Below the pieces are notes generated by a model. That model worked only from the letters and a program-made list of their open reading frames with translations. It did not search any database and was not told where the DNA came from. A stretch of DNA of 64,000 bases. Source: Candidatus Poribacteria bacterium (GTDB lineage Bacteria > Poribacteria > WGA-4E > PCPOR2b). Numbering within the stretch: the first letter of the stretch is position 1; each line of letters opens with the position of its first letter. Below are positions 1,580 through 23,925 of the stretch, in pieces. The translations under genes were made by a program, and so were the position numbers. The stretch spans positions 2,592,001 to 2,656,000 of the forward strand of contig OZ242351.1 in NCBI GenBank assembly GCA_965208675.1. Direction: 5' to 3'.

Positions 1580-3460
1580 GTGTTTGGTTTATCAACTAGC
1601 AACCTTCGTTATTTGCACCTTAAATGCGTATCTCCTAACCGTTTCACAAAGAAAGGGAAATACAACTTTATGCAAATGCGGTCTATCACGGCGAATCCGT
1701 CTCAGGTTATGGTCGAGCAACTTGCGGCACTGGATGTGAAATATCTGTTTTATAATACAGGCTCGCGCGAGGCGCGCTTTTTCGACGCACTGCATGATCA
1801 CCCGGATATACACGGCATTCTGGCGCTCCATGAAGGCAGCGTCGCAGCACAAGCTGGCGGTTATACGCAGGCAAATCTCGACCCGGCGGTTATGGTGGTC
1901 CATCTTGCCGCGGGGCTTGCCCAATGTTTAGGGCAGCTAATCAACATTTGGTCCGGCGGTTTACCTGTCGTGGTCATCAGCTTCGCAGGAGACACCGGCA
2001 GTTTCGCGGATCGGATTGAACTCGATCTCAGTCACAGTTTCGGGCCGACATCCATCGCTGCACCCTTTACAAAGCAAAATTGGACCGTGATCGACCCCGA
2101 AGGGCTGCCCCAAGCCATTCACCGTGCGTTACTGGTCGCCAAAACGCCGCCGGTGGGCCCCGTCCATCTCGCTGTTTATGATCGGGCGCTTGGGCACGAG
2201 CAGATAACCGCGAACATTATTGAAGGTAGCATCCCCGACCTCCACGCGGGTTATCCGTCGGATAGTGATGTCGAGAAGATTGAATCTGCTTTGCACGACG
2301 CGAAGTCTCCCCTGTTTTATATTGGGGATGGTGTCTGGAAAAGTGGCGCGGAAGACCAAATTATCGCGGTCGCTGAACACTTCGGTGTTCCCTGTGTCAG
2401 CAGCTACGTCCCTGTCGGCACTTGGGAAAGAAGCATCGCAACGAAACATCCACTCAATTGCGGTCGGTTGGATCAGGTGGTCGATATCCTTCAACCCGAC
2501 CTGATCGTTTGTATCGGTATCCATCATCGCGGCGTCGGAAGGTCCGGGGATTTCGATGTATTTTCTAAAGCGCGGCAGGTTATCGCCATTGGATCGGATA
2601 TTGAGCATATCAAAAATATCCCGTATCTGTCTACGGCGATTTTGGCGGACGAGCGCCGCTCCTTTGAAAGGTTGGCAAAATTGGCGTCGAGCCATTCCAC
2701 CCCGAGCCGCTTTGACGAGCGGCGGGCTTGGGTAATGGAACAAGCCGCCGCGCTGCACGTCCAGCGAATAAACGAAGTGTGGAAGACTGAGACGCGGCCT
2801 AATGAGATTCGGCCATGGATAGTGGCAGAGACGCTCGACACTGCCCTAGAACGTCGCGGCGGCGGGTTGGTGATGCTCGAACAATATGCGGTCCCGTGGG
2901 ACACCGTCGGCGGATATACGCTTTCTTCAGACACCGTAGATGCAACAGACACCGGAAGGAACAGATACATCCGCGCTGCCGGCGGGTCTGAGGGCTACGG
3001 CGTTGGAGGAGCCGTGGGATTGAAGCTCGCCGCCCCTGAAATGCCGGTTGTCGGGTTGGTCGGCGACGGTTCGCTGTTGTACGCAGAGTCGGGTTTGTGG
3101 ACCGCGGCACACCATAGCATACCGGTCCTCTACATTATTCCCAACAACCAGTCTTACGGCGCGGTTGCGTCCTCCTTCGCAAGCGTGGATGGGGTGATGA
3201 AGGAGACCGGGGAATATGCCGGAGTCGTTCTGGACGGCATTGACCCCGTAAAACTCGCCGAAGGCGTGGGTGTGGAGGGGTTGCACGTCCAAGCGGAGCC
3301 TCGCCTGGCTGCGGCGATTGAACACGGATTGAACGTGGTTGAAAGGGAAAACCGCCCATTTCTTTTGAATATTCGCTTGCCGCTAGGACTACCGGAGGGC
3401 GGACGCCCCGCTGCGCAATTCCGACATGCGGACGCTAAAACTCAGAATCGTTCGGCTTAG
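1580..3460 (+). CDS. Thiamine pyrophosphate-dependent enzyme (benzoylformate decarboxylase/acetolactate synthase-like); real start probably ~1670
   Basis: N-terminal LALHEGSVAAQAGGY with the conserved Glu; TPP motif GDGS...NNQSYG. Confidence 0.9.
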   Translation: MFGLSTSNLRYLHLKCVSPNRFTKKGKYNFMQMRSITANPSQVMVEQLAALDVKYLFYNTGSREARFFDALHDHPDIHGILALHEGSVAAQAGGYTQANLDPAVMVVHLAAGLAQCLGQLINIWSGGLPVVVISFAGDTGSFADRIELDLSHSFGPTSIAAPFTKQNWTVIDPEGLPQAIHRALLVAKTPPVGPVHLAVYDRALGHEQITANIIEGSIPDLHAGYPSDSDVEKIESALHDAKSPLFYIGDGVWKSGAEDQIIAVAEHFGVPCVSSYVPVGTWERSIATKHPLNCGRLDQVVDILQPDLIVCIGIHHRGVGRSGDFDVFSKARQVIAIGSDIEHIKNIPYLSTAILADERRSFERLAKLASSHSTPSRFDERRAWVMEQAAALHVQRINEVWKTETRPNEIRPWIVAETLDTALERRGGGLVMLEQYAVPWDTVGGYTLSSDTVDATDTGRNRYIRAAGGSEGYGVGGAVGLKLAAPEMPVVGLVGDGSLLYAESGLWTAAHHSIPVLYIIPNNQSYGAVASSFASVDGVMKETGEYAGVVLDGIDPVKLAEGVGVEGLHVQAEPRLAAAIEHGLNVVERENRPFLLNIRLPLGLPEGGRPAAQFRHADAKTQNRSA

Positions 3461-3805
3461 CCGCCAACTAACTATACGACGCCCCACGCAGTTCTTGTAG
3501 GTTGGGTAGAGCGATCAACTGAGCGAACAGCGAAGAATCAACCGATAGTCCAATAGTGTGGAAGGCTTCTCTCGCTCCAATTCAATGAGCACACGCGGTG
3601 ATTGCGTTTAGCCGCTCAATTAACCTCTTAAATTCACTACCAACACAGGCACCGACGTGTCGTTCGGGTGGGCCGATTGATTCGTATTTCCATCTTTGGT
3701 ATACTTGCGGTATTCGCAATCTGTTGGGAAATGAATTGCTCCCACTGGACTCGCTAGGAAAAGAGTTGGCGGGTCGGCGATGTATTCACAATTAAATTAA
3801 AGGAG

Positions 3806-4093
3806 GTGAGAACAATGGACAAAACGGAGGTCATGCGCAAACACAATTTAAGCGTAGGCGATGTATTGGATTTACGAGCAATGGCAGAAGGCACAGTCTA
3901 CGTTGAGGAGGACAGCGGGAGGCACATACAATTTACTGACAACCGCCACTGGAGTGACGGACGCGAGCCAGGGTGTTCAGTTGAATTCACGACCGCAGCA
4001 CGACTGAAAGACTACAATAGGATACAAACATTGTATATTAAGCTATCCGACGAAGAATACAATGCCATATTGGCCCGAGAAGACAGGAATTGA
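3806..4093 (+). CDS. Hypothetical protein
   Basis: 95-aa ORF with strong AAGGAGG RBS (ATG at 3815 plausible). Confidence 0.6.
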   Translation: MRTMDKTEVMRKHNLSVGDVLDLRAMAEGTVYVEEDSGRHIQFTDNRHWSDGREPGCSVEFTTAARLKDYNRIQTLYIKLSDEEYNAILAREDRN

Positions 4094-4408
4094 GGCCATC
4101 GGCTAGGTGTGAGCGGATTGTTGTCTTTGGATCCATAATCGCCAAATGAGTTTGAAGTTAGTCACAGCTCAAGGCGTTAAGCACGTGTACGACGTAAACA
4201 ACGCACAGACAAACACACGCACTCGATGACCTTACAAGAGATGGTAACCCCTGTATTTTTTTGAAGTACACGAACAAGCAAAAGATGTTTGTTACGGGCT
4301 GCATGAGCGCAACAATGGATTGCGGGCTTAGCGTCATCGTTTACTAGACTCTTCTATTTCTAAAGTGAGGTTTAGCCTGCCCCAAAACCTCCACGTAAGG
4401 AAACGCAC

Positions 4409-4548
4409 ATGCTCTATCTTGAATGGCGGATGCAAGACGACGAAGGATGTCCCTTGCGATTAGATTGGCTTAGACTAGCTCATCCTTTCTTTGAAGACCA
4501 AGCCGGCGTCTACATTATTTGGTATCTCGACAATGAAAATCCTGTTAC
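4409..4548 (+). pseudogene. 5' fragment of a small GIY-YIG-like protein, interrupted by a high-GC segment
   Basis: AAGGA RBS, then MLYLEW...AGVYIIWY; composition and protein character change abruptly at ~4549. Confidence 0.45.
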
Positions 4549-4701
4549 AGCTTCCGCGACTGGGCGGCGAAGCGGACGGATGCGCCGCTCGCGGTCATGG
4601 AGGCCGCCTACGCCCGCTCGGACCTGTTCGAACGCCGACGTGTCCTGATGGAGCAGTGGGCGGCGTATCTGGCGGGCCGGAGAACGAGCACCGAGGGCTG
4701 A
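4549..4701 (+). pseudogene. C-terminal remnant of a P4-type tyrosine integrase
   Basis: A frame absent from the ORF track reads SFRDWAAKRTDAPLAVMEAAYARSDLFERRRVLMEQWAAYLAG..., matching the P4-integrase C-terminus (SFRDWAAE...AY.RSDLFE.RR.LM..W..Y). Confidence 0.8.
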
Positions 4702-5146
4702 CCGGGCCCCGCGACGGGCTCAGAGGCCGTTCCCGGGCATTTCAAGGGGATTTCGGGTTACCTACGGGCTGTAGGATCGCCAGGATCGACGATCTCGGGT
4801 CCCCGAGGAGTATGGGGTAGGGTGAAATGCGGCGGCGACGGGCAGGGCAATCGGTAGGGAAGCTGAGGATCGAAGGGGCCTACTCGCTGCCCGAAGGTCG
4901 TGGTGGCGTTCGCAGCGAACGAGCGCCCTGGGTCTGTTCGGCTCATGCCCCTCGCTTTGAGGGCGCACCGTTCGCTCGGGTCCCGAACATACGCAAGCTA
5001 GAGCGCGGCCGGTAGACGGCTCGTTTCCGGCCCGATTTCCGCAAGGATCCCTATACGCTTCGAACACCTCCGTCTGACGGAGAGTGGTTCTCTCTGCGGG
5101 ATTTCCGACGCGTAGATCGTACAGTCCATAATCGAGAGGAGGTAGC

Positions 5147-5509
5147 ATGCAGGGCGTTCAGGGATTCGGTGGGTTCTTCTTTCGGGCAAAGGACCCGCAA
5201 GGACTTGCGAAATGGTATCAGGATCACCTTGGGATCAATCCTGCTCCGACGAACATGGAGATGGCTCCGTGGGTGACCGAGTCCGGGGTCACCGTCTTCT
5301 CGCCCTTCGATGCTGACACGGACTATTTCGCAGCAGACAAGACTTTCATGCTGAATTTCCGCGTGACCGATTTGGACGCGATGATTACACAACTGAAGTC
5401 CGCAGATATCGAGGTCAGCCAGGAAATCGAGATGGAGGGCATCGGCCGCTTCGCCCGCATCCACGACCCCGAAGGAAACGCGATCGAGCTTTGGGAACCC
5501 GCGTCATGA
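5147..5509 (+). CDS. VOC family (glyoxalase/bleomycin resistance-like) protein
   Basis: GFGGFFFRAKDP..LAKWY, MLNFRV.DLD and DPEGNAIELWEP motifs; GAGGAGG RBS. Confidence 0.9.
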   Translation: MQGVQGFGGFFFRAKDPQGLAKWYQDHLGINPAPTNMEMAPWVTESGVTVFSPFDADTDYFAADKTFMLNFRVTDLDAMITQLKSADIEVSQEIEMEGIGRFARIHDPEGNAIELWEPAS

Positions 5510-6484
5510 GATTCGAACTTCTGCTGTTGGACGCGACGGGATTGGGCGGTTGTCGGACTTTCGAGTCAACATCGCTGAAGGCCAGTGGCCGCTGGCACGG
5601 CAGAAGCTTACCGAGCTTAAGAGAAGCCGCTCGCTCTGGATGGTGTGGGTCGGCAACCCGGGTCTGACTTGAGGTTGGCGGCGCGTAACCCGAGTTCGCT
5701 CGCTTGGGCACTGCTCCAAGGCAACTCCACGGACGCTTCCGAAACGCTATCCGAGCGCCACCCAAAGCAGCGCGCGGGGAGCGCTCGGCCCCCAATCCCG
5801 GTGGCTTGGCGGCAAGCCGACGTGGCCGGTTCGGTTCGTTGAGTTAAGGACATCGCATGCGCCGGCGCGGAGGGCCGGCTCACGCCCTTAAGGTGCGGGG
5901 GCAGCATGCCCAACGTTATACGTAGGGCTGGCGAGAGGCACGCCCCTTCCATCCCCAAGAAGTCACTCGCCGATGCGTGCAGGATCGCGGGCGATGGGAT
6001 TCACAGTTCTTATAACCTTCCGCCTGCCGAATAAACACTGATCCCAACGTAACGCCATGAGTTTCCGAAAGCAGATTGTCCACATGTTTTTGTAGGTGGG
6101 TTGAGCGATCAACTGAGCGAATAATTCAAGCGACTGAATAGGATCAACCGAGTGAATAACGAGGGCGATAGTTTTCTCCAGTAGTAGCCTTTTCCTCTCC
6201 AGTATTCGGGTTCTCCGCGCATCGAATCTTGTAAGTCGCTAGTCTTCCGAAGCGCCTCGTTAAATTGTACATTAATTCGTGTAATCCGCTCAACCCAACC
6301 TACAAAAATTTAACCGTTTACGCATTACGCTTTTCCGTAGGAGCGATCTCCGAATCGCGACAAAAATTCGGTCAATAATTCAACCTAACGCAAAAAAACT
6401 CACACCTCTCCGATCAATATTCATCACTCTCCACTGCTTTTTCCCACTAATAATATTTCACCTACACAATTGTTAAATTTGCGC

Positions 6485-14667: not shown

Positions 14668-16701
14668 ATGAAATCACAAGCCTTTCGTTACAAAATTATT
14701 CTATTGAGCGGACTTACCTTGTTTACGTCCGACCCGGTTGCCGTCTCCCAAATTCAAGATTATTCAACGTTGAATTTGCCCGACGGAGCGGTTGCGCGTC
14801 TGGGGAAAGGCGGGGTGAGTTTCGGCGACAGAAGTATCGCGTTTTCGCCCGATGGAAGCCGCCTCGCCGTAGCAACCAGCATCGGCGCATGGCTTTACGA
14901 TGCCGAGACGTGGGATGAAATTGCGCTGCTAGCCGGGCACAAAGAGGAGGTTTCCACGGTGGCGTTCTCGCCTGACGGCACAAAACTGGCTTCAGGGTCG
15001 GGCTCCCAATTCCCCGGAACGCTAAAACTGTGGGATATCGAAAGCGGACAAGATATCGCTGCATTCCAAGTAGAGAGAAGATTTGTCGATACTGCGGCGT
15101 TCTCGCCTGACGGGGCAAAGCTTGCCTGGGCGGATAGATTGTGGGATGTGAGGGCAGGACAACAACTCGACATCATCCAAGATAAGGGGTTGTACAAGGT
15201 CGAGTTTTCGTCCGATGGTGTGACGTTAGCGGGGACAGACATGTGCGCCGTTAATGGGAAGCGGGCGGCGGTTGTAAAGTTATACGACATTGAAACCGGA
15301 AAACACCTTAAGACGCTAAATCAGGGTACAGAACGGGTCTCATCCATCGCCTTTTCGCCTGATGGGCATCTATTAGCTTCAGGCTCGCCATCCGATGGCA
15401 CAGTCAAACTGTGGGATGTAGATTCAGGGCAAAATACCGCCGTATTTACAGTGAAACCAAGTGATGGCAATGCAATGTGTGTTGCGTTCTCACCCGACGG
15501 CGCAAAACTCGCTGTGGCGTCGTCGGAGGGTATCACGCTCTGGGAAGTATCGACGGGGCAGCATCTCTACGCACGGCAACACATCGATTTCGGAAAACTA
15601 GAGATTTCAGCGGATGTTTTCTCTATTGCGTTTTCGCCGGACGGGACGAAACTCGCCTCAGCGTCATGGGATGGCGTCAAGCTGTGGGATGCAGCGACCG
15701 GGCAAAATCTCGCCGCCTTACCCGGTCATACACGGGTGGTTAATGCTGTCGCGTTCGCACCTGACGGATCGGCGCTCGCGTCAAATTCGATGAGCGGCGT
15801 CCAAGTATGGGAGGTTGCCGCCGGCCGGCATATTACCACGCTGGCAGGGCCTCCGAATTTTGCCGCATCCTTTGCGTATTCGCCCGACGGCACAAGACTC
15901 GCCGCGGGTTCAGCAGATGCAAGGAATGCCGAGCATACAGTTAAAATATGGGACGTAGATACGGGGAAAAATATTGATACCCTACAAGGGCACTCGGACT
16001 TAGTGACCGCGGTCGCGTACTCGCAAGACGGAACGCTGCTTGCCGCGGGGTCAAAAGACAGAACCATCAACGTGTGGGATGTCAAAACAGGGCAAAGCGC
16101 CGCCAGATTGCGGGGGCATAAGAGTTCAATCAACGCTGTCGCGTTTTCGCCCGATGGAACGAAACTGGCGTCCGGCGCAGATGATACGTCAATTCGGTTG
16201 TGGGAGATTCCGACCGGCAAAGTGCTGTATACACTAGGCGGTATAAATAGCCCTCAAATCCCGGTGAAAGTGCTGCCCGCGCCGCGCCGAGGAGAGGACA
16301 TCAACGAAGATCAGATGGACAGTGCCGGTGATGTTGTACCCGAGATTATCAGGGGTTCTGTCCTATCTGTCGCATTTTCGCCGGACGGAACGAAACTCGC
16401 CTCTGCGTCGATGGATGGCGTCAGGCTGTGGCATGTAGGGACAGGGAAACTTCTCGCGGCGCTCACGGACGAGGAGGATGCTGCGGGTTTCTCCGTCGCA
16501 TTTTCACCGGATGGCGCAAAACTCGCTTCCGGGTCGTGGGATAACACGGTAGAGCTGTGGGATGTTTCGACGCAAAAACATATCGCTGCATTTCAAGGGC
16601 ATACCGGCAACGTCTGGACCGTGGCGTTTTCGCCCGACGGCACAAAACTGGCTTCAGGATCAGATGATGGAACGGTGCTGCTGTGGAATGCACCAGAGTA
16701 A
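14668..16701 (+). CDS. Secreted WD40-repeat protein
   Basis: Many GH...VAFSPDGTKLASGS.D.TV.LWD repeats; N-terminal LPDGAVARLGKG motif. Confidence 0.95.
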   Translation: MKSQAFRYKIILLSGLTLFTSDPVAVSQIQDYSTLNLPDGAVARLGKGGVSFGDRSIAFSPDGSRLAVATSIGAWLYDAETWDEIALLAGHKEEVSTVAFSPDGTKLASGSGSQFPGTLKLWDIESGQDIAAFQVERRFVDTAAFSPDGAKLAWADRLWDVRAGQQLDIIQDKGLYKVEFSSDGVTLAGTDMCAVNGKRAAVVKLYDIETGKHLKTLNQGTERVSSIAFSPDGHLLASGSPSDGTVKLWDVDSGQNTAVFTVKPSDGNAMCVAFSPDGAKLAVASSEGITLWEVSTGQHLYARQHIDFGKLEISADVFSIAFSPDGTKLASASWDGVKLWDAATGQNLAALPGHTRVVNAVAFAPDGSALASNSMSGVQVWEVAAGRHITTLAGPPNFAASFAYSPDGTRLAAGSADARNAEHTVKIWDVDTGKNIDTLQGHSDLVTAVAYSQDGTLLAAGSKDRTINVWDVKTGQSAARLRGHKSSINAVAFSPDGTKLASGADDTSIRLWEIPTGKVLYTLGGINSPQIPVKVLPAPRRGEDINEDQMDSAGDVVPEIIRGSVLSVAFSPDGTKLASASMDGVRLWHVGTGKLLAALTDEEDAAGFSVAFSPDGAKLASGSWDNTVELWDVSTQKHIAAFQGHTGNVWTVAFSPDGTKLASGSDDGTVLLWNAPE

Positions 16702-16956: not shown

Positions 16957-18261
16957 ATGTTAAAAATTTTTGAAGCCTATACCGAAGAAGCGCAAGCGTT
17001 CATTAAACGGTTAAACCTGCGCGGACGACTCGACGATGAGGACATTTTGAAAACGGTACGCCGCATATTGCAAGATGTTCGTAAAAATGGGGACGCCGCC
17101 GTAATCAAGTATACACGCAAGTACGATGCGCCGAGAATAGCCGTAAAAGATTTACGCGTAAAAGCAAAGGAATTCAACGACGCACAGTCACATGTCGATC
17201 CAGAATTCATTGATGCGGTCAAGCTTGCCCGGCAGAATATCGAAAGATTTCATCGGAAACAGTTACGAAATTCATGGTTCACCGCCGAAGAAAACGGTGT
17301 CCTTTTAGGGCATATGATTCGCCCGTTGAAGCGTGTCGGCGTATGTGTGCCTTCTGTAAGTCAGCTATTGGTTTCGTCGCTCATCATGAACGTGGTTCCG
17401 GCAAAGGTTGCAGGCGTTGAAGAGATTGCCGTATTCATGGGCCCCATGCGGAATCGCAAGATTAATCCGCATATGCTTGTTGCAGCGGCGGAATGCGGCG
17501 TTCAGGAGGTTTACAAGTGCGGCGGCGCCCAAGCTGTCGCGGCAATGGCTTATGGAACGGAAACTTTGCCAAAAGTAGACAAGATTGTCGGGCCGGGAAA
17601 CTCTTTTGTCCAACTCGCCAAGAAGGAGGTCTACGGTATGGTCGACATTGACAAATTGGCGGGTCCGAGTGAAGTCCTCGTTATCGCCGACCAGAGCGCG
17701 GAACCGGCTTTCATCGCTGCAGATTTAATCTCTCAGGCAGAACACAGTGAAGATAGCTCCGCGATTCTTGTGACGCCGTCAAGAACGCTCGCAGAACAGG
17801 TTCGAAAAGAGGTAGAATTACAGACGAAAGTACTTCCGCGCCAGACTGAACTTACAAGCGCGTTTGAGAACCACAGCGCCGCGCTGGTCGTCCCCGATTT
17901 GGCGGAAGCAATCAATCTGGCGAATGCAATCGCTCCTGAACACGTTGAGTTGGAAGTGGAACGCCCATTTGAGTGGATTGGCGAAATTCGCAATGCGGGC
18001 GCAATTTTGGTGGGACCTTACACGCCGGAATCCGTCGGCGATTATATCGCGGGACCCAATCATATTCTTCCGACAGGGGGCGCCGCGCGATACGCTTCTC
18101 CGTTGAACGTGGACGATTTTCTTAAGAAGACAAGCGTAATCTCTTATACCGAGTCGGCTCTAAAAAAGGTGACGCCCGCGGTGGTCAAACTGGCGCAGGT
18201 GGAAGGCTTGGACGGGCATGCAGCCGCGATGACAACCCGGTTTGACAGGAATCAAGACTAA
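16957..18261 (+). CDS. hisD: Histidinol dehydrogenase
   Basis: KIVGPGN, AGPSEV, SQAEH, APEH and GDYIAGPNHILPT motifs. Confidence 0.97.
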   Translation: MLKIFEAYTEEAQAFIKRLNLRGRLDDEDILKTVRRILQDVRKNGDAAVIKYTRKYDAPRIAVKDLRVKAKEFNDAQSHVDPEFIDAVKLARQNIERFHRKQLRNSWFTAEENGVLLGHMIRPLKRVGVCVPSVSQLLVSSLIMNVVPAKVAGVEEIAVFMGPMRNRKINPHMLVAAAECGVQEVYKCGGAQAVAAMAYGTETLPKVDKIVGPGNSFVQLAKKEVYGMVDIDKLAGPSEVLVIADQSAEPAFIAADLISQAEHSEDSSAILVTPSRTLAEQVRKEVELQTKVLPRQTELTSAFENHSAALVVPDLAEAINLANAIAPEHVELEVERPFEWIGEIRNAGAILVGPYTPESVGDYIAGPNHILPTGGAARYASPLNVDDFLKKTSVISYTESALKKVTPAVVKLAQVEGLDGHAAAMTTRFDRNQD

Positions 18262-18335
18262 GTAAATCTTACAAACATCAACGATGGTGTTGCCTTCGCA
18301 TTTTAGCGGACGTGGTTTGCACAACGCCGTTTTTG

Positions 18336-19559
18336 CTATTCCACGATTGCCGTCACGACCCCAATGCCAAGCTTCACTCCCATCTTCTTGAGGTCAAACC
18401 TCGCACCTACGGATAATGCCATAGGGGTGTCAAGCGTGATTTTTACTGTCGCGTATTCTCCGGGGTTAATGACAGCAACGTCCGGCGGTAAACGTAGATG
18501 TCCGGTAATGTCGATAGTCCAGAGATGGATATCCGGTTTATCGTTTTCGACAAGCGGGATGTGAACGCCGCATTCCTCTTGGGTCATAACATAAACCGCA
18601 GCTTCAAAAACAGTATGCGACTTCATGGTCTTCGGATCGGATACAACCTGCCCGGGCGAAAGCCAGCCCGGTTCCGAATCAACCTGAACGACCTCCTGGT
18701 TTTCAACCGATTGATCGGCTTGTCCATTGTGCGGCGAAGGGGGAAGTTCTGCGTGGGAACGCATGGCTACACAGCGCGTTTTGATGAGATTGCCCTTGCC
18801 GACGATATGTACTGAATGGCCAACTGCAAGTCTGCCTTGAATAATCTCTCCATGAAGTGTTGACACACCGGTTTTCGGATCATCAGTCACTTCTCGAATC
18901 GGCAAAATCAGCGGCAGATCTGAGGTGCTTATCGGTTGCGGAATGCAACGGTTCAGTGCAAAGATAAGGTCCACAATTGGTTTCCAGTCACTGGAACTCA
19001 GATTATTCCCATTATATCTTAAAGCTCTCTCAGCATCTCCAATGATTATCGGGGATTTGGCTTCTACATAGCCATAAGCGGTAAGCGTTTCGCGAATCTC
19101 CATTTGACAGATTTCGATTAGCTCCGGGTCTTTGATAAGTTCTGCTTTGTTTAGAAACGCAACCACCGCCGGTATTCGAGTTTGGCTTGCAAGGCGAATC
19201 TGCGATTCTGTTTCAGTCGTCACGCCGTCAATCGCACTCACAACTAGAATCGCTCCTCCAACTTGCGGCGAACCGCTTATCAGCATCTTGACGTTATCCG
19301 CGTGGCTGATTGCGTCGATGTGCGTGTAATGCCTGCCGCTTGTCTCATAGTCGACTGCCTTATAACTAACGCCTAACCGCCCCCCGATTGAATGGTGAAT
19401 CGGTTGTTGCAAATCCAGATCATGCGCCAGTGATTGTGTCGAGCCAACCTTCGATACCACGTTTATGGTAGCAGCGGTCAGGGTAGTTTTTCCGTGACCC
19501 GCGCCCCCAAGTGTACAAATTGTCGATATTTGATGCCGGTGGTGCTTTTTTGTCTCCAT
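18336..19559 (-). CDS. Highly divergent EF-Tu-like protein with degenerate GTPase motifs
   Basis: Collinear with EF-Tu over all three domains (GHGKTTLTAA, YETSGRHYTHID, GAILVVSAIDG, FLNK, HTVFEAAVYV, G.GVV), but with G1-G5 and tRNA-contact changes. Confidence 0.9.
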   Translation of the reverse strand: METKKHHRHQISTICTLGGAGHGKTTLTAATINVVSKVGSTQSLAHDLDLQQPIHHSIGGRLGVSYKAVDYETSGRHYTHIDAISHADNVKMLISGSPQVGGAILVVSAIDGVTTETESQIRLASQTRIPAVVAFLNKAELIKDPELIEICQMEIRETLTAYGYVEAKSPIIIGDAERALRYNGNNLSSSDWKPIVDLIFALNRCIPQPISTSDLPLILPIREVTDDPKTGVSTLHGEIIQGRLAVGHSVHIVGKGNLIKTRCVAMRSHAELPPSPHNGQADQSVENQEVVQVDSEPGWLSPGQVVSDPKTMKSHTVFEAAVYVMTQEECGVHIPLVENDKPDIHLWTIDITGHLRLPPDVAVINPGEYATVKITLDTPMALSVGARFDLKKMGVKLGIGVVTAIVE

Positions 19560-19804
19560 ATGGCTAACCTCTCATAACAAATCGTCACACCAATATAGAT
19601 GACCTGTGGTTAGTCAATTGAAATGATTCTCTGCGGAACAAGTATTACCGGTGATACTTCGTATCTCTCCCATTTAGTTACAGTTTTCTGTCCTGCGTTA
19701 ATTCAATTTCCCGCTGGCAATGATAGTCTGTAGTTTACCAGAGATAACAGTAGACATCAATCACAAACTCCTATGTCCAAGTATTCCGGACGGACGGATT
19801 TTTA

Positions 19805-19833
19805 TTGACATTGCCTTAAAATGTTGTTATTAT
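19805..19833 (+). promoter_or_regulatory. Putative sigma-70 promoter
   Basis: TTGACA-17 nt-TATTAT, with TG upstream of the -10 box. Confidence 0.55.
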
Positions 19834-19946
19834 TCGCACGTTGTGTCTTGGAAACTACGATTCAAAAAGGGATTTGAATTTTCCATCAAATAAATGATTT
19901 AGAACGGCCTTATTCGATTCCAAGAATTGCAGATTGAGGTGAAAGT

Positions 19947-21800
19947 TTGAGGAAGTTTTGTTGTTGGCTGATAATATGTGTATTCTGCTCAATGGTGTTG
20001 CACGCGGCAGCGGAAATAAAGTGGGATGCTGAAAAATTTATGCCCCTGTCAGAAATTAAACCGGGCATGAAAGGAGAAGCGTACACCGTTTTTTCGGGAA
20101 CAACTGTCGAAAGTTTTCCCTTTGAAGTTGTTACCATCGAATACAATTCTTTGCCGCGGTGGCACGTGATTTGGGTTGAAGCGAGCGGGGATAATTATGA
20201 GAAGACCGGTGCTGCCGGCGGGATGAGCGGCAGCCCGGGTTATATCAAAGGACGACTAATCGGCGCCCTCTCGCTCGGCTATTTATACCAGCGGGAAGAT
20301 TCAAACCTCGTCGGCTTTACACCCATTGAATCTATGATTGAGGTAACGCGGCGCGGAATGCAACCGAATATGAGCTATTCCGGCGGTGGACTTTTTGGCG
20401 TTGGCATACATACCGCTTGGAAGCCGTTCGAGCCATTGCCTTCAGTTTCAGATGGTTTTTTTACAACTAAAGAGTCGCTGGAAACACAGTCCATTCCGAC
20501 GGTGGATAGCGGTTCGCCTCTGCTTCAGCTTCCGGTGGCGTTGCCTACGATGAATCCCCAAGTATTAGGATTCCTTAAACCAATTTTCGACAAACATCGG
20601 CTGGCGCCAATGCGTGGAACGGCTGGAGGATCGCCCGTTGAAAGCGCACCCATTGAGCCCGGCCAGATAGTCGGTATGGAATTTTCTCGAGGGGATTTCA
20701 CAGCTTTTGGTTACGGTACAATGACCTATATTGAAGGAAATCAGATAATCGGTTTCGGTCATTCAATGTTTGGAGAAGGTCATGTAAATCTCCCGCTTTC
20801 TGGAGGGTATGTCCATTTTATTCTACCCAGTATTACTCGATCGTTCAAAGTCGCATCCCCGACGAAACCGATAGGCACATTGGTGCAGGATCGCCAAACA
20901 GCCATCGCGGGTTTAACCGGACCGCATCCCAGTTTTATGCCGGTAAGCGCCAGCATTGAAACGACAGACGGGCAAACCCATCCAGTTCGGTATGAGGTGC
21001 TGCGCCATCGTGACTTATCGGCGGCGATCGCAATGACTGGGGTTTGGAATAGCATCAGCGCGCTTGAGATTGATAGCGGCGATCATACCATCAACATAAA
21101 TACGACAATTACACTCCAAGATCAGCCCAATCTCTCATCTCAAGAGATTGTGCGCAGCAATGTTTATTCATCCAGTTTTTCGCCGGGGTTTTGGGCGTTT
21201 CAGGCTTTTTCCCCGTTAGCAAGTCTAATTGGTAATCAATATGAAAAGATTGTGGTTAAAGGAGTTACCGTTGACATCAAAATTGAGGATAAGCGCAAAA
21301 CGGCGGTTATTGAAGCGGTTAGGATAAATAAAAATCGGTATCGCCCGGGTGAGCAAATTGAGGTGATGGTGACCCTTCGCCCTTATCTTGAAGCGCCAAT
21401 TATGCAAGTGGGGCACATTAAAATTCCGGATGACGCCCCTGAAGGATTATCCACACTCCTTGTTGCAAGCGCGGTGTCCCATGAAGCCTGGCAGCGAACC
21501 CGCGCCCCGCTGAACTACTACCCAAAAAATATCAATCAACTCATCCAACTGTTGCAACACAACCCTAGCAATAATAATATTATACTTGAGATTTTTATCC
21601 CGAAAATTGGCATGACTGTTCAAGGGCGAGAATTCCCGGAACTCCCTTTGTCTATGCTCTCGGTCATGAGTTCGCCCAGCCAGTCTGGTGAAGGAGGCTA
21701 CACGCGCGGGACTACCTTGCATATTCAAGATGTCCCGACGAAGTACGTTATCTCTGGTGGACAATTTGTACGATTCACCGTAGACCGAAACGCCCCATAG
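19947..21800 (+). CDS. SpoIVB peptidase S55 domain protein (secreted)
   Basis: MPLSEIKPGMKG, GGMSGSP and IGFGHSMF motifs. Confidence 0.9.
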   Translation: MRKFCCWLIICVFCSMVLHAAAEIKWDAEKFMPLSEIKPGMKGEAYTVFSGTTVESFPFEVVTIEYNSLPRWHVIWVEASGDNYEKTGAAGGMSGSPGYIKGRLIGALSLGYLYQREDSNLVGFTPIESMIEVTRRGMQPNMSYSGGGLFGVGIHTAWKPFEPLPSVSDGFFTTKESLETQSIPTVDSGSPLLQLPVALPTMNPQVLGFLKPIFDKHRLAPMRGTAGGSPVESAPIEPGQIVGMEFSRGDFTAFGYGTMTYIEGNQIIGFGHSMFGEGHVNLPLSGGYVHFILPSITRSFKVASPTKPIGTLVQDRQTAIAGLTGPHPSFMPVSASIETTDGQTHPVRYEVLRHRDLSAAIAMTGVWNSISALEIDSGDHTININTTITLQDQPNLSSQEIVRSNVYSSSFSPGFWAFQAFSPLASLIGNQYEKIVVKGVTVDIKIEDKRKTAVIEAVRINKNRYRPGEQIEVMVTLRPYLEAPIMQVGHIKIPDDAPEGLSTLLVASAVSHEAWQRTRAPLNYYPKNINQLIQLLQHNPSNNNIILEIFIPKIGMTVQGREFPELPLSMLSVMSSPSQSGEGGYTRGTTLHIQDVPTKYVISGGQFVRFTVDRNAP

Positions 21801-21846
21801 TCCATTGCCAATCTTCAATTAGCCATTAAGAGGAGGAAGTTTCTTC

Positions 21847-23925
21847 ATGAGGCATTATCGTGTTCTTTGTCTGTTGGGATTCATAGCCATACTATTGGTT
21901 GCCGCAATTGGAACGGCGTTGGCAGTGAAAACGTCCGTGTGGGAACAATACCGCCATCGTGATTTTGAAGCCGGAACCGGTAAAGATGTATCGATTTCAA
22001 GCAAAAACGACGTCGTTTTGTCCCCTAAACTGGACGCTGTTTTCACAGATATAGAGCAGATTTACATTTGGTGTCTAGCCGAGGATTCTAAAGGAAACAT
22101 CTACGCGGGTACTGGCAATCAGGGGAAAATCTATAAGATTAATCCCGAAGGTCAATCATCGCTCTTTTACGACTCGCCAGAGGTTGCAATATTGAGTCTT
22201 GCTATAGACAAAAATGACAACCTTTATGCTGGCACGGCGCCTGATGGCTTAATTTATAAAATCTCCCAAGAAGGTGTTCCACCAAATACTCTTCTTAGTT
22301 CCGAGGAAAAGTTCGTTTTTGCGCTGACGTTTGATGATGCCGGAAATCTATATGCAGCGACGGGAACAAACGGCAAGATTTACAAAATCACGCCTGAGGG
22401 TGAAAACAGCGTCCTGTTTGACTCTGAAGAGAGTTCCATTATGTGCCTGCTGTACCACCAAGGCGCTCTGTACGCTGGAAGTGAGGGTAAAGGTGTCATT
22501 TACCGAATAACACCCGATGGATCGGTTTCAGTTGTATATCAGACGGGACAAAAAGAGGTCCGCACGCTGGTTGTAAATCCCCAAGGCACCATCTACGCTG
22601 GTACCGTCACAACTTCTCCACCGAAGCCGGGCGCACCGCCAAGCGGTCCTCCTCCGCCAGGCGCGCCGCCCGAAGAAAAGAAGTCACAGCTTTATCAGAT
22701 TAATCCTGACGGCGTGGTCTCCATGATTTGGGCGGCACCAGCCCCATTGATTCTGTCAATGGTTGTCGAAGCGGATAATCAACTCTTGGTTGGAACAGGG
22801 GACGACGGAAAGGTTTTTCGAGTCAATACGGATGGGGACTTTACGTTATTGGGAAAATGCGATGCAAGTCAGATTCTTGCAATGCACCGGAGCACAGATG
22901 GCAAACTCACCTTGGGAACAGGCAATGCCGGTAAATTCTTTGAACTGAAAATCGATCGCAATTCATCGGGAACACTAGAATCTGTAGCTCATGATACGCG
23001 ACTCATTTCGCGGTGGGGGAAATTATCGTGGGAAGGACTTTCGCCGGAAGGTACTTCAATTTCGTTCGCTACGCGTACGGGCAACACTGGAAAACCGGAT
23101 AACACTTGGAGCGATTGGTCAAGCGCACTGACAATCCCGGAAGGTTCTCAGATAACGAGTCCAACAGCACGATTCATCCAATGGCGTGCAACACTTACGA
23201 CGAGCGCTCCGTCAACGACTCCAATTCTAAAAAGAGTAGCTGTTGCATCTGTCCAATCAAATGTCGAGCCTCGTTTTACTTCAGTTGAGATTCATCGCGG
23301 AGATAAACCCAAAGGCTCCGGCAGACCCCCTGATGTAAGTCCTCCGGGAGAAAACAGAGCCCAAAGCCAAGCTGAAAGCAATAATGGGAAGCGGCGGGCA
23401 ACCTGGAAAGTAGAAGATGCGAACAATGATACCCTGCAGTTCACCATCTACTACAAAAGCATTGATGAGACAAATTGGAAACTACTCAAAAAGAAATTGG
23501 ATCAGCCTAACTACACCTGGGATACGACATCAATGCCCGACGGACGCTACACCCTGAAAATTCAAGCGACGGATAAGCTAAGCAACCCGCCTAGTTTCGC
23601 AAAAGCTTCTGAGAAAATCAGCGATCCTTTTGACATTGATAATACACAGCCAGCAGTAGGCAATATCGCTGCGACTGCCAACGGAGATGATACATTTCAA
23701 ATCGTGTGTTCGGTTGAGGACGCGATGAGTTATATTCAAAAGGCGGTTTATAAAATCGACAACGATGAACATTGGAAGGTCATGTTTCCGGCGGATGGAA
23801 TCTTCGATTCCAAGCGGGAAGAACTTATGGTTCAAACGGAGACACTGCCGGCCGGTGAACACATCATAACAATTCAGGCTACTGATGCAGAGGGAAATAC
23901 GTCTGTTGGGCGGGGGAAGTTCTGA
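21847..23925 (+). CDS. Secreted beta-propeller repeat protein with C-terminal Ig/FN3-like domains
   Basis: Repeated GNxYAGT...GKIYKI units; WDTTSMPDGRY; directly follows the S55 gene. Confidence 0.85.
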   Translation: MRHYRVLCLLGFIAILLVAAIGTALAVKTSVWEQYRHRDFEAGTGKDVSISSKNDVVLSPKLDAVFTDIEQIYIWCLAEDSKGNIYAGTGNQGKIYKINPEGQSSLFYDSPEVAILSLAIDKNDNLYAGTAPDGLIYKISQEGVPPNTLLSSEEKFVFALTFDDAGNLYAATGTNGKIYKITPEGENSVLFDSEESSIMCLLYHQGALYAGSEGKGVIYRITPDGSVSVVYQTGQKEVRTLVVNPQGTIYAGTVTTSPPKPGAPPSGPPPPGAPPEEKKSQLYQINPDGVVSMIWAAPAPLILSMVVEADNQLLVGTGDDGKVFRVNTDGDFTLLGKCDASQILAMHRSTDGKLTLGTGNAGKFFELKIDRNSSGTLESVAHDTRLISRWGKLSWEGLSPEGTSISFATRTGNTGKPDNTWSDWSSALTIPEGSQITSPTARFIQWRATLTTSAPSTTPILKRVAVASVQSNVEPRFTSVEIHRGDKPKGSGRPPDVSPPGENRAQSQAESNNGKRRATWKVEDANNDTLQFTIYYKSIDETNWKLLKKKLDQPNYTWDTTSMPDGRYTLKIQATDKLSNPPSFAKASEKISDPFDIDNTQPAVGNIAATANGDDTFQIVCSVEDAMSYIQKAVYKIDNDEHWKVMFPADGIFDSKREELMVQTETLPAGEHIITIQATDAEGNTSVGRGKF

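Follow-up and report, generated by a model that had tools for sequence, protein, structure and literature searches.

A divergent EF-Tu paralog family kept beside tuf across an order of Poribacteria

The gene, its relatives and its selection

The stretch of DNA analysed here, referred to as the window, comprises 64,000 nucleotides of a Candidatus Poribacteria genome (GenBank assembly GCA_965208675.1, contig OZ242351.1, positions 2,592,001 to 2,656,000 of the forward strand), and the gene under study is an intact minus-strand coding sequence (CDS) with an ATG start, taken from the list of open reading frames (ORFs), that encodes a 407-residue paralog of the elongation factor EF-Tu (Table 1). The host genome consists of one contig of 4.89 Mb and is 96.4% complete. 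Its canonical tuf gene, which scored 723 bits with the EF-Tu model TIGR00485 and adjoins the EF-G gene (fusA), is located ~2.2 Mb from the paralog, and the two proteins share 33% identity. We consider it probable that the gene is a neofunctionalised EF-Tu paralog, kept beside tuf across its order, that carries no tRNA and is on its way to becoming a pseudo-GTPase, its partner being left aside. An earlier sequence-only reading of the window had reported an intact frame with its own ribosome-binding site, outside any ribosomal operon, and had listed the motifs GGAGHGKT, DAISH (with its His kept), NKAE, DAE and KKMG as departures from EF-Tu; all of this was borne out by the translation and the flanking sequence, and the presence of a canonical tuf elsewhere in the genome was confirmed. 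No ribosomal or translation genes were found among the immediate neighbours of the paralog, the context of which differs from that of tuf and fusA.

Table 1. Coordinates, within the window, of the paralog gene, its motifs and the flanking features
Feature	Position	Strand	Remarks
EF-Tu-like paralog CDS	18336..19559	-	G domain ~10-205, remodelled domain II ~215-307, domain III ~312-405
Shine-Dalgarno GAGAGG	19568..19573	-	8 nt 5' of ATG; same in 4/4 genomes of genus
P-loop GGAGHGKT (residues 18-25)	19485..19508	-	Walker A retained; canonical His19, Asp21 lost
Remodelled switch I QQPIHHSIGGRLGVSY (residues 51-66)	19362..19409	-	family motif Q-x-P-x-H-H-[SP]-I and shifted G-V-S
G3 DAISH (residues 82-86)	19302..19316	-	Asp and catalytic His retained; DxxG Gly replaced by Ser
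G4 NKAE (residues 137-140)	19140..19151	-	guanine-specificity Asp replaced
Helix D DPELIEICQMEIRETL (residues 144-159)	19083..19130	-	among best-retained EF-Tu surfaces
G5 GDAE (residues 174-177)	19029..19040	-	canonical Ser173 replaced by Asp
Low-complexity insert (residues ~269-288) replacing EMFRK...GENVG domain II hairpin	18696..18755	-	predicted local distance difference test (pLDDT) <50 at 271-285
Domain III KKMG (residues 391-394) in place of REGG	18378..18389	-	K391 in 147, K392 in 147, M393 in 145 of 147 family members
WD40-repeat protein gene	14668..16701	+	677 aa
hisD	16957..18261	+	convergent to paralog
Near-consensus sigma-70 promoter (11/12)	19805..19833		directed at the 617/692-aa gene pair
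Pair of large genes	19947..23925	+	617 aa then 692 aa; genus-conserved

A word-index search identified 408 relatives, and among the 120 listed the identity ranged from 94% to ~49% and the length from 386 to 407 residues. The distribution was sampled in 151 Poribacteria genomes, comprising 140 from the order of the window (families f1-f4) and 11 from outside it. A paralog-grade match besides tuf was present in 138 of the 140 genomes of the order, and a profile search added very divergent copies in G080, G151 and G152, giving a total of 141 of 143; tuf without the paralog was observed only in G091 and G153 (86% and 85% complete). No copy of the paralog was detected in the 11 genomes sampled outside the order; in five of them a search with TIGR00485 yielded tuf (698-730 bits), a SelB-like gene and nothing else. 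Among 1.84 billion representatives at 50% identity only two were family-like, P0024 with 594 bits and P0170 with 308 bits, canonical EF-Tu scoring at most 221. By these searches no family member occurs outside Poribacteria among the genomes and named records examined, other phyla having been sampled through the representative search only. One family member is named 'GTP-binding protein' by the NCBI annotation pipeline (PGAP) and others 'elongation factor Tu' by the Joint Genome Institute (JGI), and the named cluster members are a 'GTP-binding protein' and a 'hypothetical protein' of Candidatus Poribacteria bacterium.

A tree of 68 rows was calculated from 14 of 40 paralog loci together with P0170, 13 Poribacteria tuf sequences and every second of 80 diverse loci (40 rows), one locus with an internal stop (L130) being lost; the canonical comparison set consisted of EF-Tus from a contig search that had picked the generic HGKTTLTAA pattern. 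The paralogs formed one clade with maximal branch support (SH-aLRT 100) on a stem of ~3.4 changes per site, and vertical inheritance fits since each taxonomic family is monophyletic within this clade. P0170 is an EF-Tu-like singleton of 401 aa, encoded on a 2.1-kb JGI metagenome contig and sharing 39% identity with the window protein. NKID and SAR are intact in it but DCVNH is altered, and its branch arises along the stem that links the family to canonical EF-Tu; by its motifs and position it may represent an intermediate or a sister lineage. In approximately unbiased (AU) tests neither the grouping of the paralogs with all Poribacteria EF-Tus (p-AU 0.777) nor their grouping with a 21-row proteobacterial clade (p-AU 0.705) was rejected, so that the attachment of the stem to canonical EF-Tu is left open by a test without power. 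An AU control with a p-value of 1.9e-5 was discarded because it was confounded by leaving out L026, whose tuf nests inside Pseudomonas in the EF-Tu tree. This contig, recorded as Gordonia sp. IEGM753, probably represents contamination of the Gordonia assembly.

Two further observations were made on translation factors in these genomes. A SelB-like gene with a 648-aa frame is present at G000:C1:2132414-2133481 (L003), and also in all five outgroup genomes checked, which suggests selenocysteine use across the phylum. In G045, G139 (family f6) and G006, which are 88-95% complete, no EF-Tu-like match was obtained with the paralog as query at E-values up to 1e-20, and tuf may be unassembled in these three genomes.

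Selection was assessed by pairwise ratios of non-synonymous to synonymous substitution rates (dN/dS or omega) according to Nei and Gojobori (NG86). The ratio for the paralog was 0.16-0.23 within the genus at unsaturated synonymous distances (dS 0.11-0.68) and 0.055 in a second genus, and for tuf in the same genome pairs it was 0.03-0.04. The paralog is approximately five times less constrained, or faster-evolving, than tuf and is under clear purifying selection, with a dN/dS so far from 1 that it must be regarded as functional.

Remodelling of EF-Tu sites and genomic surroundings

Pfam matches to the paralog were obtained for GTP_EFTU (85 bits) and GTP_EFTU_D3 (57 bits), and none was obtained for GTP_EFTU_D2. 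Aligned end to end, the protein scored 251.0 bits with the EF-Tu model TIGR00485 (cut-off 522.4) and 264.1 bits with NF000766 (cut-off 449), and it reached 40.9 bits with the SelB model TIGR00475 (cut-off 242.25) and 21.5 bits with the CysN model TIGR02034 (cut-off 336.1). It stops after domain III at 407 residues without the winged-helix, selenocysteine insertion sequence (SECIS)-binding C-terminal extension of SelB, as the sequence-only reading had noted, and no cysD-like gene occurs among its neighbours. By curated score and by defining residues the paralog fails membership of EF-Tu, SelB and CysN, and the subfamilies EF-Tu, actEFTu2, CysN and SelB named in the passages available from a 2015 catalogue of translational GTPases (trGTPases; PMC4342817) do not include the family, in line with its proposed position outside known subfamilies.

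The closest solved structures to the paralog are those of EF-Tu (E = 7e-73). A model of the protein predicted with AlphaFold2 (AF2) had a pLDDT of 90.7 and a predicted template modelling score (pTM) of 0.88, with pLDDT <50 at residues 271-285, and a Foldseek search with it yielded template modelling (TM) scores of 0.82-0.88 to EF-Tu structures, so that on the predicted coordinates the three-domain EF-Tu fold is retained. Two strands fewer are present in domain II than in a control model of the tuf product of the same genome, which was built from the same 95 sequences. The open, GDP-like shape of the paralog model was considered as a sign of a locked state; however, this was rejected because the control model of canonical EF-Tu was equally GDP-like (TM 0.94-0.96 to GDP forms, 0.54-0.59 to GTP forms), which makes the shape uninformative. 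A search of the ESM Atlas returned only generic EF-Tu clusters.

For the analysis of individual sites, 147 paralogs (L128 excluded, duplicates dropped) were aligned with 92 diverse canonical EF-Tus, and residue numbers were mapped to those of E. coli EF-Tu via E. coli tuf, D80 and N135 of the latter corresponding to paralog residues 82 and 137. In the P-loop, G18 and G23 are present in 147/147 family members and K24 and T25 in 146/147; His19 and Asp21 are invariant in 92/92 canonical EF-Tus, and position 21 is occupied in the family by Gly (100), Glu (30) or Gln (14). Switch I was counted in a set of 119 sequences, two of the 120 listed matches having been omitted by length (380-445 aa kept), and contained Q51 in 115, P53 in 115, H56 in 116 and I58 in 115. 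The sequence-only reading had called switch I unrecognisable; the canonical position is indeed rewritten, but a G-[VI]-[ST] triplet (GVS, residues 63-65) is present, displaced by two positions from the canonical GIT, with Thr (57) or Ser (47) at position 65 in 104 of the 119 sequences and with the wording REGVGITY in one subfamily (55/147). As the shifted triplet is conserved, a candidate Mg-coordinating Ser/Thr65 survives. In G3 the Asp is found in 146/147 and His84 in 122/147, and the DxxG Gly is lost in 145/147, the position of Gly83 being taken by Ser (74) or Thr (60) and only twice by Gly. In G4 the Asn is found in 147/147 and the Lys in 67/147, the position of Asp138 varies between Glu (76), Gly (35), Asn (14), Asp (13) and Ser (9), and 31 different G4/G5 combinations occur (NKAE, NTGG, NQTE, NTDS, NPRN and others in G4). 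Ser173 of G5 is fixed as Asp in 144/147 and is Ser in none, with GDA occurring in most G4 backgrounds.

Binding of Mg-nucleotide by the window protein is likely, given its intact Walker A motif, the candidate Mg ligand Ser65 and Asp82. Its base specificity is probably relaxed or altered, as suggested by NKAE, GDA and the variable G4 of the family, and a shift towards ATP is possible. We take it that the Obg-family ATPase YchF/OLA1 carries NxxE instead of NKxD, similar to the NKAE seen here. It was also observed that the positions of E. coli G15 and V149 (C15 and C151 in the window protein) are Cys in 144 and 145 of the 147 family members, respectively, and in all four of the orthologues described next; the two might form a disulfide or a metal site, or simply pack in the core.

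In four orthologues of family f4, belonging to genera g13 and g14 (L194, L195, L196 and L128 from genomes G151, G152, G080 and G147, respectively), the P-loop is deleted. Their frames were taken from stop to stop and trimmed; at this site they show G[ED][RK]S[YN]---D, a deletion of three residues that leaves neither Lys nor Thr; N137 (E. coli N135) is replaced by Asp and GDA is lost. Its recurrence in four genomes from two genera speaks against this deletion being an artefact of assembly. The frames are intact with a dN/dS of 0.14-0.18 (L195 versus L196: dS 0.149, omega 0.178), and as purifying selection persists despite deletion of the P-loop, the common function of the family would need no nucleotide in these lineages. 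Conservation reaches at least 90% at 147 positions of the main family, and the P-loop-less orthologues keep 68 of them, including 33 that are family-specific and located mostly in domains II and III; the retained family-specific sites include GDRI[KR]T and V-D/E-x-E-P-G-W in domain II and D340, W347, E389, K392 and M393 in domain III. Helix D is their most EF-Tu-like 15-residue window (0.49 versus 0.195 overall). Helix D and a newly formed face of domains II and III seem to take part in the common function, judging from what these divergent sequences have kept. The P-loop-less orthologues additionally carry a switch II insertion of 4-10 residues, and three of them also carry insertions of four residues in switch I and five residues in domain III.

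In the 92 canonical EF-Tus, conservation reaches at least 95% at 179 positions, of which 47 are kept in the 147 paralogs, 24 are switched, 101 are relaxed and seven are deleted. The most EF-Tu-like segments are the P-loop with helix A (identity 0.68), beta4 (0.54) and helix D (residues 144-158, 0.52); the least EF-Tu-like 15-residue segments are 260-274 (0.01), 214-228, 54-68 in switch I, 275-289, the N-terminus and 322-336 in domain III. K89, G317 and H319 are kept in the family, as is much of the hydrophobic core common to EF-Tu. The residues of the aminoacyl pocket (H66, E215, D216, T228, F261, R262 and N273 in E. coli numbering) were taken from passages of PMC4605307 and transferred from T. 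aquaticus numbering by sequence context, and 0/7 are kept, either in the window protein or as the family majority. In the family alignment 80-110 of the 147 members have gaps in the domain II hairpin columns, the hairpin bearing F261, R262 and N273 is deleted in 80/147, and in the window protein the EMFRK/GENVG region is replaced by the low-complexity insert of Table 1, in agreement with what the sequence-only reading had described. In domain III, E. coli E378 is replaced by Lys in 147/147 and R318 by Thr, two residues that, according to the part of PMC10653918 bearing on them, belong to a conserved domain-3 pocket beside tRNA nucleotide 52. No match to the tRNA-mimic partner families PF10116 (Host_attach), PF03464 and PF03465 was found in the host genome (96.4% complete). 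Host_attach is included here for its presumed link to Balon.

Helix D is the third most EF-Tu-like 15-residue window of the main family (0.52 versus 0.316 overall), with D144 present in 145, E146 in 147, L147 in 145 and E154 in 147 of the 147 members. E. coli D142, E144, E152 and E155 are invariant or Glu/Asp in the family, and L148 is conservatively replaced by Ile. In EF-Tu this helix docks the C-terminal domain of L7/L12 and the N-terminal domain of EF-Ts, and the L148A substitution cuts ribosome association five-fold (PMC5770553, in part); EF-Ts of M. tuberculosis touches the counterparts of E. coli D141/D142 and E152 (PMC9529903, in part; the offset was inferred from motif numbers).

The paralog is flanked by hisD, the WD40 protein gene, a gene for a weakly S55-peptidase-like protein and a gene for a beta-propeller/Ig protein. 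Synteny around it holds only inside the genus or family, and the recurrent neighbours belong to large families (Gfo/Idh/MocA, Zn-ADH and PhyH). A sigma-70 promoter scan gave no minus-strand promoter, no terminator was found, and an Rfam scan of positions 18000-20200 returned nothing at E-values up to 1. In addition to the convergent hisD of the window, a His_biosynth (hisA/hisF-type) gene is convergent to the paralog in the distant family f3 (L121, L122, L124 and L126); such his genes may be the remnant of an ancestral position near a his cluster, and co-transcription is impossible. The WD40 protein is eukaryote-like, its top Pfam matches being eukaryotic beta-propeller families (WDR3, THOC3 and Prp19), and a second copy is found upstream in a sister genome (L125). 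Of the genus-conserved pair, the 617-aa protein has only a weak SpoIVB/S55 peptidase match (21 bits, under cut-off), and the 692-aa protein is composed of beta-propeller and Ig-like parts. The G+C content is 0.55-0.58 at positions 2001-6000 of the window and 0.44-0.52 elsewhere in it.

Function of the family and alternative readings

That the family is a selected paralog which does not deliver tRNA is very probable, and its repurposing of the EF-Tu scaffold, as had been proposed from the sequence, agrees with the abundance of orthologues, the dN/dS of 0.16-0.23, the separate clade and scores below every curated EF-Tu, SelB and CysN cut-off. The evidence leans towards a family function independent of GTP hydrolysis. 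The designation as a pseudo-GTPase, put forward by the sequence-only reading, is strongly suggested for the family by the four P-loop-less orthologues, but the window protein itself keeps G18, G23, K24, T25 and D82 and could still bind a nucleotide. Among the roles put forward by that reading, only an EF-Ts sink and an altered nucleotide specificity would draw indirect support from the sequence, through the retention of helix D, the loss of the NKxD Asp and the fixation of the G5 Ser as Asp. Under the reading we prefer, in which a neofunctionalised paralog is kept beside tuf, aminoacyl-tRNA delivery would have been abandoned and the family-wide function would be a binding or adaptor role exerted through two surfaces, the first being helix D, where EF-Ts and L7/L12 dock in EF-Tu, and the second a new family-specific conserved face on domains II and III. 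In the window protein the nucleotide may then act as a slow switch or a cofactor, without the ribosome-triggered GTPase cycle, and it would be dispensable in family f4.

The L7/L12 stalk and EF-Ts are possible but doubtful partners, and a choice between the two cannot be made because the other EF-Ts contacts are changed or mixed. A fuller version of the adaptor model is more tentative again: no pseudo-GTPase family derived from bacterial EF-Tu would have been known before this one, and its members, present throughout the order and having given up tRNA and by stages the nucleotide, would be adaptors that dock via helix D on L7/L12 or EF-Ts and use the new domain II/III surface for recruiting or sequestering another factor, as Ski7-like translation regulators.

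Several observations weigh against the preferred reading or parts of it. Four of the eight mappable G-domain contacts with EF-Ts are retained (D142 and E152 fully, H84 in 122/147 and Q124 in 115/147), and D141, P111, E117 and A85 are changed in the family; H118, which we take to be a neighbour of the EF-Ts wedge, is mixed. The conservation of helix D may be partly structural, as L145, L148 (as Ile) and V149 (as Cys) are packing residues. A predicted complex of the paralog with EF-Ts of the same genome, which was run without controls, obtained a score of 0.12 and a mark of 0.32 and is evidence neither for nor against an interaction. The P-loop-less forms originate from metagenome-assembled genomes that are 80-91% complete, no conserved operon partner of the paralog was present in the 11 loci compared, and the AF2 model carries no information on ligand binding. 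Finally, the P-loop, Asp82 and catalytic His86 retained by the window protein are compatible with an unusual NTPase cycle on the ribosome.

The last point leads to the alternative that the paralog is an NTPase switch whose base specificity has changed (for instance to ATP, or to no selectivity for the base) and which still cycles, possibly on the ribosome, with its GTPase machinery re-tuned; we regard this as unlikely but by no means negligible. Conservation of Walker A, Asp82 and the shifted Ser/Thr65 in families f1-f3 and of the catalytic His in most members speaks for it, and the near absence of the NKxD Asp (13/147) while the G5 Ser is fixed as Asp (144/147) resembles directional change rather than decay. 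However, G4 is so variable that recognition looks relaxed and not redirected, nearly all members have lost the DxxG Gly, and a function shared with the four P-loop-less orthologues, which are still selected, cannot rest on a nucleotide cycle.

A decoy or immunity factor that absorbs toxins, phage proteins or host factors targeting EF-Tu is improbable. Such a role would suit a protein that evolves fast and retains the EF-Tu shape with translation-specific sites lost; EF-Tu complexes with the toxins Tse6 and CdiA are among the structural neighbours, and the position of Thr382, which we assume to be the target of Doc, is Arg or Lys in 128/147 family members. However, no toxin, immunity, defence or mobile gene is conserved nearby in any of the 11 loci compared, and inheritance looks vertical across four families, at an omega of 0.06-0.23 with no sign of an arms race. 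The CdiA toxin moreover binds domain 2 (PMC5737660, in part), which is the most altered domain of the paralog.

Similarly improbable is a specialised elongation factor carrying one unusual tRNA or tRNA-like ligand, in the manner of SelB or nematode mitochondrial EF-Tu2. The three-domain fold of the predicted model, the retention of K89, G317, H319 and the stalk-docking site on helix D, and the remark in PMC4342817 (in part) that most duplicates within the EF1 family specialise on certain tRNAs or on mimics of tRNA are in its favour; against it stand the complete loss of the aminoacyl pocket with deletion of the hairpin in more than half of the members, the position of switch I, domain II and domain III residues 322-336 among the least EF-Tu-like segments, the existence of P-loop-less orthologues and the absence of eRF1-like or Host_attach tRNA mimics from the host genome in the search given above. 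A decaying tuf duplicate without function, to which the 101 relaxed canonical positions and the disordered low-complexity part of domain II might point, is refuted by an ORF intact in 141/143 genomes of the order, a dN/dS of 0.055-0.23, the 147 positions conserved within the family, the 24 canonical positions switched to a new conserved residue and the confident AF2 model.

Returning to the neofunctionalised paralog, living lineages hold successive stages of G-domain decay, with full G4/G5 in P0170, guanine specificity lost in the window protein and the P-loop lost in f4, and all stages are under purifying selection. The family would thereby offer a natural series for following the conversion of a molecular switch into a scaffold that needs no nucleotide, and for seeing which EF-Tu surfaces outlast tRNA delivery. 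If helix D does dock the stalk or EF-Ts, the paralog would represent a new kind of translation regulator in uncultivated sponge symbionts. In practical terms it would be a clade marker for this order of Poribacteria, and automated pipelines could miscount it as a second tuf.

Comparison with known systems

Few bacterial proteins are as conserved and as abundant as EF-Tu, and gene conversion normally keeps duplicates of it identical; the present family has diverged much further. No description of this Poribacteria paralog family was found in the literature, the supplementary taxon tables of PMC4342817 lying outside the search, and by its sequence features it is an undescribed order-wide EF-Tu paralog family that belongs with the trGTPase paralogs which have left the canonical cycle. 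With canonical EF-Tu (TIGR00485; PDB 6gfu and 1efc) it shares the fold, Walker A GKT, Asp80, Asn135, Lys89, helix D and much of the hydrophobic core; unlike canonical EF-Tu it is without the DxxG Gly, the NKxD Asp, the G5 Ser, Asp21 and the aminoacyl pocket, its hairpin is deleted or replaced, and switches I and II are rewritten. SelB and CysN resemble the paralog in combining an EF-Tu-like G domain with beta-barrel domains.

Among trGTPase paralogs, Ski7 may act as a hydrolysis-deficient adaptor. It is eukaryotic, derives from a different parent and has N-terminal partner extensions, none of which are present in the paralog. Nevertheless the EF1A paralogs Ski7 and Hbs1, with their role other than tRNA delivery (PMC4342817, in part), would be the nearest analogy in the way of working if the paralog is an adaptor. 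The actEF-Tu (Tuf3) of actinomycetes, the sole distinct bacterial EF-Tu-like subfamily named in the available passages of the 2015 survey (PMC4342817), is like the paralog a second EF-Tu-like gene that escaped gene conversion and formed its own subfamily in one lineage; it is described there as a working, condition-specific, antibiotic-resistant factor, which would set it apart from a family that has lost the tRNA pocket and, in part, the P-loop. In kind, the nearest analogue on record is archaeal aSelBL (Atkinson, Hauryliuk and Tenson 2011, PMC3037878, in part), a lineage-restricted EF1-family duplicate of unknown function that is under selection and has a G domain 'disrupted to varying degrees'. 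However, aSelBL derives from archaeal SelB and is reported to keep the pattern of ribosome and aminoacyl-tRNA binding, whereas the present paralog derives from bacterial EF-Tu and is most degraded in precisely that pocket.

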